The notes beneath the pieces are model-generated. The model did no database searches. It saw nothing but the letters and a program-made list of their open reading frames with translations, and had not been told where the DNA came from. The position numbers were made by a program, and so were the translations under genes. 64,000 nucleotides of DNA. It comes from Escherichia coli 042. GTDB taxonomy: Bacteria; Pseudomonadota; Gammaproteobacteria; Enterobacterales; Enterobacteriaceae. The stretch is from assembly GCF_000027125.1 (NCBI RefSeq), contig NC_017626.1; one strand, written 5' to 3'. Below are positions 13,673 through 21,489 of this stretch, one piece after another (the first letter of the stretch is position 1; every line of letters starts with the position of its first letter).

Positions 13673-16600
13673 TTACACCTTTTCCACATTCACAAGGAAG
13701 GACTTAAACTCCGGCGTCTGCGTGTTCGCATCACCAACGAAAGGCGTTAACGTATTGGCAATAAAGCCTTTTTTAGCTACGCCTTCATAGCCCCAGTGAA
13801 TCGGAATACCGATGGTATCGATATCTTTGCCGTTCGCTTTCAGCGTGCGAATACGTTTGGTCACCACCGCTTTGGCTTTGATATAGCCACGGTTGGAGGA
13901 GACTTTCACGGTATCGCCCTGGGCAATGCCAAGTTTATTCGCCAGCGACTCCCCGATTTCCACAAACTGCTCTGGTTGCAAAATCGCGTTCAACAGCGCG
14001 TGTTTGGTCCAGTAGTGGAAGTGCTCGGTCAGACGATAGGTGGTTCCGACATACGGGAACTTATCGGCTTTACCCAACGCTTCGGCGTCGTCTTTAAAGA
14101 TACGCGCAGCCGGGTTCGAGATAACGTTTGGATGCAGCGGGTTAGTTCCCAGCGGCGTTTCAAACGGCTCGTAGTGTTCCGGGAACGGACCTTCCGCCAT
14201 CTTATCAAGGGCAAACAGACGTCCCATGCCTTCCTGCTGCATGATAAACGGCCCTACGCCGCTGCCCGGAGGCGCTGCGCTGTAGTCCGGAATATCCCAG
14301 CCGGTCCACTTAGTGCCGTCCCATTTCAGCAACTGACGCTTCGGATCCCACGGGTTACCCTGCGGATCTGCGGAGGCGCGGTTATACAGGATGCGGCGAT
14401 TAAGCGGCCATGCCCATGCCCAGCCCAGCGTGTTACCGAGGCCAGACGGATCGGCGTTATCACGGCGTGCCATCTGGTTACCTTCTGGCGTCCAGCTACC
14501 GGCGAAAATCCAGCAGCCACAGGAGGTGGTACCGTCATCGCGCAGTTGGGCGAACGAGCTAAGTTGTTGGCCTTTCTTGACGATAACCGCACCGGTTGCC
14601 GGATCGGTAATATCGGCCAGCGCCTTACCGTTGCTCTCCATCGCTACTTCTTCCGACTTCGGCTCATGCGGGATAGCGTAGTTCCAGGTCATGTTCAGCA
14701 CCTGGTCCGGGTTCGCGCCACCCTGTTCGGCATACATCTTGCGCAAGCGCAGGAAGATACCGGAGAGGATCTCGCCATCAGTCAGCGCAATCCCCGGGGC
14801 GTCCGCACCTTTCCAGTGCCACTGCAACCAGCGACCGGAGTTAACGATTGAACCGTTCTCTTCCGCGAAGCAGGTCGATGGCAGACGGAACACTTCGGTC
14901 TGGATCTTCGACGAGTCAACTTCGTTCAGCTCACCGTGGTTCTGCCAGAAGTTAGAGGTTTCAGTGTTCAGCGGGTCGATGGTGACGAGGAACTTCAGTT
15001 TCGACAGACAACCGATCACTTTGTTTTTGTTCGGGAATGAGGCAACAGGGTTAAAGCCCTGGCAGATATAGCCATTGACCTTGCCTTCTTTCATCATCTC
15101 GAAGTATTGCAGGACGTCGTAGCCTTTATCCCACTTCGGCAACCAGTCAAAGCCCCAGCTATTTTCCGCCGTCGCTTTATCACCAAAGAAGGCCTTCATC
15201 ATAGAGACGAAGAATTTCGGGTAGTTGCCCCAGTAGTTTACCTGGCCTTCCAGCAGCGGTTTTGGCGTGTTGGCGGTAAGGTAGGTTTGCAGATCGGTCT
15301 GCTTCTCGCTCGGCAGCGTCATGTAACCCGGCAGGCTCTGCGACAGCAGCCCCAGGTCCGTCAGCCCCTGAATATTGGAGTGACCGCGCAGGGCGTTAAC
15401 GCCGCCGCCTGCCATCCCCATATTGCCGAGCAGCAGCTGGATCATCGCCATCGTACGAATGTTTTGCGCACCAACAGAGTGTTGCGTCCAGCCGAGGGCA
15501 TACAGGAACGAGGCAGTTTTATCGTGAGCACTGGTTTCGGCGATGTATTCGCAGACTTTCAGGAACGCGTCTTTTGGCGTACCACAGATGTTTTCAACCA
15601 CATCTGGCGTGTAGCGGGAAACGTGCTGTTTCAGCAAGTTCCACACGCAGCGCGGATGTTGCAGCGTGGTATCGCGTTTGGCGAAGCCGTTTTCGTCCAG
15701 TTCGTAAGTCCAGGAGGATTTATCGTACTTGCGTTTTTCCGCGTCATAGCCGGTGAACAGGCCATCTTCAAAGCCGTAATCCTCACGCACGATCAGGCTG
15801 GCGTTGGTATAGGCTTCGGTGTATTCGCGGTTGAATTTTTCATTGTTCAGCAGGTACAGCAATACGCCTGACAGGAAAGCAATGTCAGTACCGGAACGAA
15901 TAGGGGCATAGTAGTCAGCCACCGCCGCCGTACGCGTAAAGCGAGGATCGATCACAATCAGCTTCGCGCCATTGTGAATTTTGGCTTCCATCGCCCAGCG
16001 GAATCCGACCGGGTGAGCTTCAGCGGCGTTACCGCCCATCACCACGACGAGGTTGGCGTTCTTGATGTCGACCCAGTGGTTGGTCATCGCACCGCGACCA
16101 AATGTTGGAGCAAGACTTGCTACCGTTGGTCCGTGTCAGACACGCGCCTGGTTGTCGACCGCGAGCATACCCAGCGCGCGGGAGAATTTTTGCGTTAAAT
16201 AGCCGGTTTCGTTACTCGACGCGGAAGCACACAGCATCCCGGTGGAGAGCCAGCGGTTAACGGTCACGCCTTCGGCGTTTTGCGCAATGTAGTTAGCATC
16301 GCGGTCTTCTTTCATCAGTTTGGCGATGCGATCAAACGCCTCTTCCCAACTGATTTGCTGCCATTTATCAGAACCTGGCGCACGGTATTCCGGAAACTTC
16401 AGACGGCTTTCGGAGTGGATGAAATCCACCAGGCCAGCGCCTTTCGGACAAAGTGCACCGCGGTTGACCGGGTGATCCGGATCGCCTTCGATATGGAAGA
16501 TAGATGCTTTGGCGTTTTTTGCTCCGTCACCGAGGCTGTACATCAACAGCCCACAGCCTACGGAACAATAGGTGCAGGTATTACGGGTTTCGCGGGTGCG

Positions 16601-16723
16601 CAGCAGTTTATACTGCCGGGTTTCCGCGAGCGCTACGCTGGGGGCAAAACCCAGTGCCGCTGCCGTGGTGCCTGCCATACCGCCAGCGCAGATCTTAAAG
16701 AACTGCCTTCTGCTGACCTGCAT
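13673..16723 (-). CDS. fdoG: Formate dehydrogenase-O catalytic subunit, selenoprotein with an in-frame TGA (Sec) at 16136-16138
   Basis: Track ORFs 16136..16723 (Tat signal MQVSRRQFFK, ending ...DNQARV) and 13673..16087 are in the same frame and separated only by TGA; the sequence continues HGPTVASLAPTFGRGAMTNHW... as expected for Sec196 of molybdopterin formate dehydrogenases. Confidence 0.9.
16090..16135 (-). promoter_or_regulatory. Candidate SECIS element directing selenocysteine insertion in fdoG
   Basis: Lies immediately 3' of the in-frame UGA on the mRNA and contains the palindromic segment agcaagtcttgct; position matches bacterial SECIS placement. Confidence 0.55.
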
Positions 16724-17799: not shown

Positions 17800-18461
17800 G
17801 TGAATTTTATTATTTTATTTATAAACAAAACGCGTGTAGTGGCGTTAACGCCTGCGCTGCAACCTATTGATGGCGTGGCGGTGAGTTATATTGATGCTGC
17901 CGTGGCGTTGGGTAATACCATTAACGAAATGGATAAATATTACACCCAGGAAAATTATAAAGACGATGCGTTTGCGAAAGGGAAAACGCTGCACCAGACA
18001 TTCTTAAAAATCTTGAAGCCTTTGAACCTGTAGCAGAATCTTATCATGCGGCGATTCAGGAAATTAACGATAAGCGCCAGCTTGCGGAATTGAAAAATAT
18101 TGAAGAAAGAGAAGGGGAAACATTCCACTACTACTCTCTGGCAGTCATGATTTCAGCGAAACAAATTAATAACCTGATATCGCAAAATAAGTTTGATACA
18201 GAAGCGGCAATGAAGAAAGTGTCTGAACTGGAAACGCTGGTGGCGCAAGCCAAAGAAGCGGATAAAAGCGGCATGAATTTCTCGTTTATTAATTCGGCAG
18301 GCCAGTATCAACTCGAGGCTAAAAAATACGTTCGCCGCATCAGAGATAAAGTCCTGTACTCTGACTGGGATAAAGAGCAACTTCAGGACGCAAACTCAAT
18401 CTGGATGGCCGAAGACTCATTTCCCGAGAGCATTATGCGAGTACAACGAAATGGTCGATGA
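17800..18461 (+). pseudogene. yiiG-like gene remnant, frameshifted and apparently N-terminally truncated
   Basis: Two consecutive ORFs (17800..18033, 18090..18461) in different frames read as one protein if a single indel near 17990-18005 is corrected. No signal peptide is present and the ORF starts right after the fdhD terminator. Resemblance to YiiG is recalled only at low confidence. Confidence 0.45.
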
Positions 18462-18881
18462 AATATTTCAGTCAATTGTAATCGCGGGGCGGGTTTGTGA
18501 TGAGCGCGGATATGTCACGAAGTCGTGACAATATAAAGCAGAGTGAAGGATAAATTTTGTGAATAAAGTATCATTATTTAATGATTTTGTGAATGTTTAA
18601 ATGTCTCAGATAATTTGTTTAAGCGTTATTTATATTTGTGGCTTATGAGTCAGCGTGAATCATATCTAATATTTTTTACGATATTTAGTTAAAAACGGCA
18701 CTATTGTTATATTCCTCACGTTCCAGGAAATCAGCGGATTTACTCATATTATATGGCGGGATACTATCCATCGGCCTGCTGAAGTTGGATTAAAAATTCG
18801 AAAGTGCACACCTTATATTTCTCTATATACGTATTCCTTTTGGAAAGCGTAGGGTCTCTTTTATTTCAGGGAACGTAAATA

Positions 18882-20276
18882 ATGAAAAAATCGACATTAT
18901 CTTTAGCCATCGGTTTATTATTGGCATGTAGTACCGGATTGGCAAAAACACAGCATTTAACGCTGGAACAACGCATGGCATTGCTGGAAGAACGCCTGGA
19001 AGCGGCAGAAATGCGGGCAGCAAAAGCAGAGAGCCAGGTTAAACAGCTGCAGACACAACAAGCCGCTGAGATCCGCGAAATTAAGGCTGCCCAGGGCAAT
19101 ACGCCGGTAAATGGACAGGCAACGGCGGAATCTGCAAAGAAAAATTCCACCTCACCTAATCTTTTGCTCTCAGGTTATGGCGATTTAAAAATCTACGGCG
19201 ACGTAGAATTTAATATGGATGCGGAAAGTAATCATGGCCTGCTGGCAATGACCAACGCTGATGTGAATAGCGATCCCACTAATGAACAGTGGAATCTCAA
19301 TGGTCGTATTCTGTTAGGTTTTGATGGTATGCGAAAACTGGATAATGGTTATTTCGCCGGGTTCTCCGCACAACCGCTGGGGGACATGCACGGTTCAGTA
19401 AATATCGATGATGCGGTATTCTTCTTTGGCAAAGAAAACGACTGGAAGGTCAAAGTAGGCCGTTTTGAAGCCTACGATATGTTCCCGCTGAATCAGGATA
19501 CCTTTGTTGAACATTCCGGTAATACTGCGAACGATCTTTATGACGATGGCAGCGGTTATATCTATATGATGAAAGAGGGCCGCGGGCGCTCTAACGCTGG
19601 CGGTAATTTCCTCGTCAGCAAACAACTTGATAACTGGTATTTTGAATTAAACACGTTACTTGAAGACGGAACATCTTTATATAATGACGGTAATTATCAT
19701 GGACGCGATATGGAGCAGCAGAAAAATGTTGCTTATCTGCGTCCAGTAATTGCCTGGTCGCCGACGGAAGAATTCACCGTTTCCGCAGCGATGGAAGCGA
19801 ACGTAGTAAATAATGCTTATGGTTATACCGATAGCAAGGGTAATTTTGTCGATCAGTCCGATCGTACCGGCTATGGTATGAGCATGACCTGGAATGGCCT
19901 GAAAACGGATCCGGAAAATGGCGTCGTGGTTAATCTTAATACCGCCTATTTAGATGCTAATAATGAGAAAGATTTCACTGCCGGGATTAACGCGCTGTGG
20001 AAACGTTTCGAGCTGGGTTATATCTACGCGCACAATAAGATTGATGAATTCAGCGGTGTAGTTTGTGATAACGACTGCTGGATTGATGATGAAGGGACGT
20101 ACACCATTCACACCATTCATGCGTCTTATCAGTTCGCTAATGTGATGGATATGGAGAACTTTAATATTTACCTCGGGACGTATTACTCCATTCTGGATAG
20201 CGACGGTGATAAAAAACACGGTGATGATACTGATGACCGTTACGGGGCACGCGTTCGCTTTAAATACTTCTTCTGA
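18882..20276 (+). CDS. Putative outer-membrane carbohydrate porin (LamB/ScrY-like) with N-terminal coiled coil
   Basis: 464-aa product: signal peptide MKKSTLSLAIGLLLACSTGLA, a roughly 50-aa Glu/Ala/Gln-rich heptad region, then Gly/Tyr/Asn-rich sequence with alternating hydrophobicity and a C-terminal Phe typical of beta-barrel proteins. Preceded by an AT-rich 420-bp region. Confidence 0.5.
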   Translation: MKKSTLSLAIGLLLACSTGLAKTQHLTLEQRMALLEERLEAAEMRAAKAESQVKQLQTQQAAEIREIKAAQGNTPVNGQATAESAKKNSTSPNLLLSGYGDLKIYGDVEFNMDAESNHGLLAMTNADVNSDPTNEQWNLNGRILLGFDGMRKLDNGYFAGFSAQPLGDMHGSVNIDDAVFFFGKENDWKVKVGRFEAYDMFPLNQDTFVEHSGNTANDLYDDGSGYIYMMKEGRGRSNAGGNFLVSKQLDNWYFELNTLLEDGTSLYNDGNYHGRDMEQQKNVAYLRPVIAWSPTEEFTVSAAMEANVVNNAYGYTDSKGNFVDQSDRTGYGMSMTWNGLKTDPENGVVVNLNTAYLDANNEKDFTAGINALWKRFELGYIYAHNKIDEFSGVVCDNDCWIDDEGTYTIHTIHASYQFANVMDMENFNIYLGTYYSILDSDGDKKHGDDTDDRYGARVRFKYFF

Positions 20277-20316
20277 TGAAGGCGCGGTGCTGGATATTTT
20301 CCGGCACCGCAACTCA

Positions 20317-20631
20317 TTAAGGCAGGTAAAACACTTCTTGCAGCTCGCTACTGACTGGGCTGTTATCCGGGTTAGCTGGCATAACGTCGGTCATATATTT
20401 CCACCAACGTTGGCAAACATCAGTACTGGCTACCGCATTCCACCGTTCTTCAGATTCAATCTCTACCGTGGCAAACAGCAGATTACGCGCTTTGTCGAGG
20501 TAAATGGCGTAGTTATGCGCACCGTGAGATTTCAACACTGCTTCCAGTTCCGGCCAGATTGGATTATGCCGACGCTGATACTCTTCGTGGGCGTCGGGGT
20601 TAACCTGCATGACAAAGGCTTTGCGGATCAT
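20317..20631 (-). CDS. rhaM: L-rhamnose mutarotase
   Basis: 104-aa product recognised as RhaM (YiiL). Confidence 0.9.
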
Positions 20632-20640
20632 GTTTGCTCC

Positions 20641-21465
20641 TTACAGCGCCAGCGCACTGGCGAGTGGTGTAACGCCGAAACGCTGGCCGAGCGCTATCAG
20701 CTCTTCACGGCTGATGGTCTGTTTCATGCCGCCCATCGAATAAACCTTCACTAATACTTGTGCTGATTTTTCTGCGGTGTCGATTAAACCGAATGTTTCA
20801 TCCAGTGTCGGACCGCTGCCGAAGACGCCGTGGAAGGGCCACAACACCAGCGAATGTTTTTGCATTTCCTGTGCGGTCGCCTGGCCGATTTCGTCGGTGC
20901 CGGGCACCATCCACGGCAGAATGCCAACGCCATCCGGGAACACTACCAGACACTCAGTGCTGCCTTCCCACAGTTGGCGAGTGAAGACCGCGGTGTCGTT
21001 TTCCAGTACGTAGGTAAGGGCGATCAGGTTGGTGGCATGGCAGTGCATGATCACCCGATCTTTACCGTTGGTGGCTTTAATGCGTTCGCAATGAGAGAGG
21101 AAGTGCGCCGGAAGTTCAGAGGTTGGAACGGCTTCGTGAGTTAGCCCCCAGAGAATATGGTAGCCCGCGCCGTCGCTGTCGACTTTTACGACGCCTAAGT
21201 TAGCCGCAGGATCAAGCTGGACGTTGCGGAAGAATTTGCCGGAGCCGGTGACAATAAACGGTGTATTTGCCAGTAAAGGCATGGGCTGGCTGAGCGGGAT
21301 ATAGCGCGGTTGTTGGTGGAAGTTGTCGTGATACGGTGCGATATCGGCGTCATCCAGGCGCAGTGTCAGGTTACCACCATTGCGCTCGTCCCAGCCTTTC
21401 AGCCAGGCGTCGGTGGTGGCTTTGATCATTCCCTGGACAAACCAGGACTGGGTAATGTTTTGCAT
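20641..21465 (-). CDS. rhaD: Rhamnulose-1-phosphate aldolase
   Basis: Internal ATG gives the 274-aa product [16 protein letters not shown]...; class II aldolase. Confidence 0.9.
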
Positions 21466-21489
21466 GTTCTGTGTTCCTGTAAATTCGGT

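Follow-up and report, generated by a model that had tools for sequence, protein, structure and literature searches.

An orphan chromosomal porin gene of the RafY family beside the rhamnose genes of Escherichia coli 042

Introduction

A 64,000-nucleotide stretch of the Escherichia coli 042 genome (NCBI RefSeq assembly GCF_000027125.1, contig NC_017626.1), here called the window, carries next to the rha genes an open reading frame for a porin-like protein, referred to below as the 18882 porin. A preliminary description of this DNA proposed a sugar-specific porin of the ScrY type whose substrate could not be read from its neighbors. The locus raises the question of which porin family the protein belongs to and what such a pore might admit. 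Both the gene and its family are known and annotated already, and the results given here agree with this: the porin bears the RefSeq label "carbohydrate porin" in thousands of genomes, a chromosomal rafY homologue without rafRABD has been noted in O157:H7 under the name rafY2, and rafY without a complete raf operon has been noted in many E. coli. The coordinates of all features are collected in Table 1.

Table 1. Features of the 18882 porin gene and its surroundings, in window positions.
Feature	Coordinates	Strand	Evidence
yiiG (DUF3829) remnant, 5' part gone, frameshifts	17839..18461	+	alignment to K-12-like locus, three-frame translation
Upstream region, AT-rich (~34% GC), ~420 bp, with RBS, one sigma-70-like and two CRP-like matches inside	18462..18881	.	
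rafY2 / PGAP "carbohydrate porin" CDS, 464 aa + stop	18882..20276	+	ORF, ATG start
Signal peptide, residues 1-21, predicted SPase I cut after Ala21	18882..18944	+	sequence, alignment
N-terminal periplasmic helix / coiled-coil extension, probably ScrY-type Sugarporin_N, residues 27-70	18960..19091	+	heptads, AlphaFold2, PF11471
Low-complexity linker, residues 71-97, allele-variable	19092..19172	+	AlphaFold2 pLDDT <50, alignment
Predicted 16-stranded beta-barrel, residues 98-464, beta-signal V-R-F-K-Y-F-F at end	19173..20273	+	
Long strand 5-6 loop, residues 195-240, porin-L3 position	19464..19601	+	AlphaFold2, alignment
Cys395-x3-Cys399 pair, predicted loop 388-404	20064..20078	+	alignment, AlphaFold2
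GC-rich hairpin between convergent porin and rhaM, probable bidirectional terminator	20284..20310	.	RNA fold

Results

Family assignment

The reading frame is intact and its product is the same sequence that was quoted in the preliminary description. Pfam profile PF16966 (Porin_8, "Porin-like glycoporin RafY") matched residues 104-464 with E=3.1e-154 and 513.9 bits at a cut-off of 25 bits, and the match covered profile positions 1-372 of 372. The porin features of the protein are therefore far above chance. The PF02264 LamB barrel profile gave no match at E≤1, neither a Porin_1 nor an OprB Pfam domain was matched, and no specific NCBIfam model was found. Searches of the PDB by phmmer and by a 46-sequence family profile returned no LamB/ScrY match at E≤10 and no meaningful match to a solved relative.

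A tblastn search of plasmids recovered porin genes that are roughly 78% identical to the 18882 porin. The one plasmid that was inspected, the IncF plasmid NZ_CP091039, encodes a porin with 78.4% amino acid identity over 100% of the length. This gene comes after a LacI-type regulator, a GH36 alpha-galactosidase, an MFS permease and a GH32 hydrolase, which is the rafR-A-B-D-Y arrangement, and on the basis of this operon structure it is assumed to be the RafY of pRSD2. The 18882 porin belongs to the RafY family. It has the full-length profile match, the homology to an operon-linked rafY and a predicted outer-membrane barrel of about 16 strands, and it shows neither the barrel profile of the LamB/ScrY family nor, in the predicted structure, its count of 18 strands. 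It stands outside the LamB/ScrY barrel family, though with a probable ScrY-type N-terminal extension. Between the two E. coli alleles that were compared, dN/dS was 0.057 at a dS of 0.20, and by this sequence measure the porin is under purifying selection.

Signal peptide, periplasmic helix and linker

The protein begins with the signal peptide MKKSTLSLAIGLLLACSTGLA, with cleavage before K. In an alignment of 27 homologues (A2) Ala21 is invariant while Cys16 varies, and the segment is therefore regarded as a signal for SPase I rather than as a lipobox, with the cut placed after Ala21. A lipoprotein, which the lipobox-like L-L-A-C16 could have indicated, was ruled out on the same grounds.

The heptad-like stretch of about 50 residues that had been noted before was recovered as a single register over approximately seven heptads (residues ~25-70), with H/M/L/A/V/Q/I at the a positions and L/L/A/A/L/E/A at the d positions. 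AlphaFold2 modeled residues 28-70 as one helix with a pLDDT of ~85. Nine residues in this helix, namely E29, R31, E36, R38, L39, E43, R45, A49 and E50, are invariant across the homologues. The Sugarporin_N profile (PF11471) matched residues 27-54 with E=0.024 and 15.4 bits, which is under the 25.7-bit cut-off. When homologues were scanned singly, however, 26 of 27 matched the profile at E≤0.1, with 3.9e-7 as the lowest value, and precomputed PF11471 matches exist for several of them. On account of these matches the extension is considered probably homologous to that of ScrY despite its own sub-threshold score. The linker that follows is the least conserved section of the homologue alignment, and identity among E. 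coli alleles falls to 81-89% at about gene nucleotides 121-360.

Predicted barrel, loop and cysteines

The remainder of the protein was described earlier as rich in Gly, Tyr, Asn and Asp, and the barrel indeed contains 10.7% D, 9.9% N, 9.6% G and 6.3% Y. Its end, VRFKYFF, includes the FKYFF that had been pointed out, and a C-terminal Phe pattern of this kind is the usual outer-membrane beta-signal. An AlphaFold2 monomer model, built from an alignment of 46 sequences, some of them family members as remote as 25% identity, reached a pLDDT of 80.3 and a pTM of 0.71. It has sixteen long strands within residues 100-463, with several loops of low confidence, and the beta-barrel anticipated in the preliminary description is thus what structure prediction gives.

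The structures closest to the model are the classical 16-stranded trimeric porins and their sugar-selective relatives (OmpF/OmpC, OprP, VhChiP and OprB). VhChiP and OprB are 16-stranded yet sugar-selective, and because of such porins the fold class is no proof of a non-specific pore. The 18882 porin shares with this group the predicted 16 strands and the long loop after strand 5, and differs from it in having an extra N-terminal coiled coil and no Pfam match to the Porin_1 or OprB domains.

Conservation within the family is highest in the loop that joins strands 5 and 6 (FEAYDMFPLNQDTFVEHSGNTANDLY.DG.GYIYMMKEGRGRS). Invariant columns are densely packed at residues 193-237, no long strand was modeled over the 46 residues 195-240, and pLDDT is low at 212-217 inside the putative L3. 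Judged from the topology of general porins, this loop may constrict the channel. Two cysteines, C395 and C399, show conservation of 90% or more among the 27 homologues and lie between the predicted strands 376-387 and 405-418, where they could form a disulfide.

The locus in E. coli

The gene order in the window is fdoG, fdhD, the yiiG remnant, the porin, rhaM-rhaD-rhaA-rhaB on the minus strand, rhaS and rhaR. The preliminary description had rhaM separating the porin from the rha genes. This does not hold, as rhaM (20317-20631) is itself a rha gene on the same minus strand as rhaD, rhaA and rhaB, and the porin converges with the whole block. At the other end, fdoG (13673-16723, minus strand) contains a single in-frame TGA at 16136-16138 (codon 196, context NQARV*HGPTV), which is the expected selenocysteine codon and is the reason that the ORF finder splits the gene into 195 and 804 amino acids. 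Compared with K-12-like strains, the yiiG remnant lacks ~480 bp at the 5' end, start included, and the equivalent yiiG in a related genome (locus L001) is called a pseudogene by PGAP.

Comparison of window positions 18462-20316 with loci L003, L014 and L015 revealed three states of this site. State A reads yiiG-frvRXBA-porin-rhaM. State B, which is K-12-like, reads yiiG-frvRXBA-rhaM and has about 120 bp in place of the ~1.7 kb with the porin. State C, that of the window and of 1165 genomes, retains only the porin; yiiG is decayed and frvRXBA is cleanly deleted, and the ends of the ~4.8 kb deletion lie just past the yiiG stop and 19 bp before frvA begins. In total, the porin was found in 2542 of the 5426 complete E. 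coli genomes, which is about half, and is absent from K-12. The interval between fdhD/yiiG and rhaM is a variable hot spot for carbohydrate genes. Among porin-carrying strains, rhaT of E. coli ERL04-3476 (L014 14986-16020) and rhaS of E. coli AF14 (L015 13003-13839) are each annotated as a pseudogene with an internal stop.

When the window was searched by tblastn, no remnants of rafR, rafA, rafB or rafD, or of the upstream genes found in Citrobacter, were detected near the porin. A LacI-type match at 51721-52686 was considered as a raf remnant and set aside as an unrelated paralogue of 26% identity. Since the window holds neither raf catabolic genes nor remnants of them, the substrate that matters in E. 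coli 042 may be something other than raffinose itself.

Flanking DNA and regulatory signals

The region upstream of the porin corresponds to the divergent frvA/porin intergenic region of other E. coli, and homology to state A strains begins 19 bp upstream of frvA. An AGGGAA ribosome binding site lies at 18868-18873, 8 nt 5' of the ATG, in a block that is kept in four homologous loci and is common to those of Citrobacter, Klebsiella and a raf plasmid. A weak sigma-70-like match was found at 18790-18819, and promoter-like matches in the upstream region are no commoner than in shuffled sequences. Given these chance-level matches and the AT-rich upstream DNA, the porin could be silent under laboratory conditions. 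CRP-like matches of 8/10 positions occur at 18558 and 18705, two against 0.22 expected, and Citrobacter shares the conserved block that contains the match at 18705. In the alignment of the four loci the RBS block and one 64-bp block shared by E. coli and Citrobacter are conserved upstream, which is too little to define a regulator site. Downstream, the hairpin between the convergent genes has a folding energy of -28.1 kcal/mol (z=-6.1), and none of 200 shuffles was as stable. A simple terminator scan missed it on account of the lack of a T-run.

Synteny in other genera

The carbohydrate link of the orphan porin comes to light through comparative synteny. In Citrobacter and Kluyvera the porin adjoins rhaM convergently, as in the window. 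In Klebsiella sp. B345 the same site reads rafR-rafA-rafB-porin-rhaM, and the encoded Raf proteins share 64-75% identity with those of the plasmid. In Enterobacter the porin has frvRXBA on its divergent side and rafR-rafA-rafB downstream. The earlier statement that the neighbors do not reveal the substrate is thus correct for the window, which has no raf remnants, but not for the orthologous site beside rafR-rafA-rafB in Klebsiella and Enterobacter, nor for the plasmid raf operon that ends in the 78%-identical gene. A RafY-family porin is also the last gene of an operon for an ABC sugar transporter, a GH13 enzyme, a GH130 phosphorylase and a DUF1861 protein in Buttiauxella (L008/L009 1228-9395), where the family has been recruited for another oligosaccharide, possibly a mannoside. 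The contexts in Klebsiella, Enterobacter and Buttiauxella indicate that the RafY family has repeatedly been attached to oligosaccharide-utilization loci.

Exchange with plasmids

Identity between the porin gene and plasmid rafY is uneven. Over a tract of ~600 nt, gene nucleotides ~660-1260 (window 19541-20141; L002 8660-9260 on the plasmid), DNA identity is 91-96%, while outside the tract it is 54-80% over the first 600 nt and 77% over the last 120 nt. Such a mosaic suggests that the plasmid and chromosomal rafY genes have recombined or undergone gene conversion. Furthermore, conjugative IncK/IncI-gamma plasmids of ~97 kb hold a porin-rhaM-rhaD segment of 98.7% identity, positions 6840-9589 of plasmid CP057400.1 (L010) corresponding to window positions 18721-21470. 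On the IncK plasmids the segment is fused directly behind a pair of genes for an MFS permease and a GH32 hydrolase, resulting in a newly assembled permease-hydrolase-porin cluster. The MFS/GH32 pair is 100% identical to that of another chromosomal locus, where LacI, MFS and GH32 genes lie beside a porin of the OmpG family and which occurs in a few dozen E. coli genomes.

Discussion

Taken as a whole, the results are likely best explained by an intact chromosomal glycoporin of the RafY family that is exported, has a predicted 16-stranded barrel with a periplasmic helix, serves as a wide passive channel for oligosaccharides and is an orphan at this site. The precursor would be exported via Sec and cut by SPase I after Ala21, inserted into the outer membrane in a BAM-dependent manner through the C-terminal beta-signal and folded into the barrel, probably as a trimer. 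The conserved loop between strands 5 and 6 would occupy the position of constriction loop L3. The 43-residue helix, on its flexible linker, would hang into the periplasm, where it would probably form a three-stranded coiled coil that steadies the oligomer and stabilizes the trimer, as proposed for ScrY and DcaP. Di-, tri- and oligosaccharides at low concentration, such as the raffinose family, sucrose and maltodextrins, would then pass by diffusion through a wide channel without a tight sugar-binding site. Stachyose and maltodextrins as large as maltoheptaose reportedly pass through RafY as well, and it is said to complement lamB and scrY mutants. We infer the wide passive channel by analogy with the plasmid RafY, which has been characterized. 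This founding member is reported as a wide general diffusion pore, and the label "sugar-specific" given in the preliminary description is accordingly doubtful.

Plasmid RafY (pRSD2 type; PF16966; TCDB 1.B.15) has the same length of 464 amino acids and the same architecture of signal peptide, coiled coil, linker and barrel with the end ...RFKY.F. It differs in its setting, as the 18882 porin is chromosomal, at a fixed site by rhaM, and unlinked to rafRABD. DcaP of Acinetobacter baumannii (PDB 6EUS) is an analogue in structure. It is a trimer with 16 strands in the barrel, and its N-terminal coiled coil of ~50 residues is attached through a disordered linker. DcaP is only 11% identical to the 18882 porin, however, and is anion-selective for dicarboxylates.

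Three other explanations of the gene were weighed. A ScrY/LamB-type porin, whose channel would contain a saturable "greasy slide" in addition to the periplasmic coiled coil, would be in keeping with what the protein has in common with the sucrose porin ScrY (LamB family PF02264, TCDB 1.B.3, 18-stranded; PDB 1A0S), namely the probably homologous Sugarporin_N extension, which within the LamB/ScrY family is confined to the ScrY subgroup, and a presumed role in oligosaccharide uptake. RafY overlaps LamB and ScrY in substrates according to papers citing Ulmke 1997, and on the TCDB tree the RafY family is nearest to the sugar porin family. Of the ScrY-type claim, an outer-membrane pore of a carbohydrate-uptake family with a Sugarporin_N-type stalk can be retained. 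The LamB/ScrY barrel cannot, there being no PF02264 match and 16 rather than 18 predicted strands, and we consider a pore of that type unlikely. Coupling to the divergent frvABXR PTS operon, with the porin as the point of entry for the frv substrate and a leftover in E. coli 042 after the frv deletion, is a secondary possibility. In its favor, frvA and the porin are divergent across a common intergenic region of 480-545 bp in state A E. coli and in Enterobacter, and the window still has that region, beginning 19 bp before the start of frvA. Yet the 1165 E. coli genomes in state C hold the porin without frv and roughly half hold frv without the porin, and since each is kept alone in so many genomes neither needs the other. 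Citrobacter, Kluyvera and Klebsiella, moreover, have the porin at the site without frv genes, and three independent contexts join the porin to raf genes. An entry pore for frv is therefore improbable.

The third explanation holds that a raf cluster was once present on the chromosome and left this gene behind as a relic, silent and without present function in E. coli 042. The orphan state, with no rafRAB(D) near, would fit a relic, as would the AT-rich upstream DNA with no convincing promoter, the clean loss of the porin from about half of E. coli and the decay of the adjoining yiiG. The reading frame is nevertheless intact and constrained between E. coli alleles (dN/dS 0.057 over dS 0.20), the RBS block is conserved across genera, 2542 genomes keep the porin, and it was recruited intact onto the IncK plasmids. 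A relic is thus very unlikely.

The contrast between the tract of 91-96% identity and the 54-80% elsewhere in the gene, together with the IncK fusion of porin-rhaM-rhaD, leads to a further proposal on the history of the gene. Plasmid rafY may have its chromosomal source, and an ongoing partner in recombination, at the fdhD-rhaM site, in which case the orphan porin would be a module that plasmids repeatedly capture for new oligosaccharide-utilization operons. We put this forward tentatively and regard it as rather unlikely.

A chromosomal member of the RafY family, GlyP of Klebsiella pneumoniae, is normally little expressed and serves as an alternative nutrient channel (bioRxiv 10.64898/2026.03.29.715108). 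Its gene closes a LacI-regulated operon that encodes a permease, a hydrolase and the porin, whereas the E. coli porin has no linked regulator or catabolic genes. Derepressed GlyP alone was sufficient for a fitness gain in OmpK35/36-deficient K. pneumoniae (same source). RafY-family pores are wider than porins of the OmpF/OmpC type. An accessory wide-channel porin in about half of E. coli could affect the scavenging of oligosaccharides in the gut, such as raffinose and stachyose from a plant diet, and could also affect the antibiotic permeability of porin-deficient strains.
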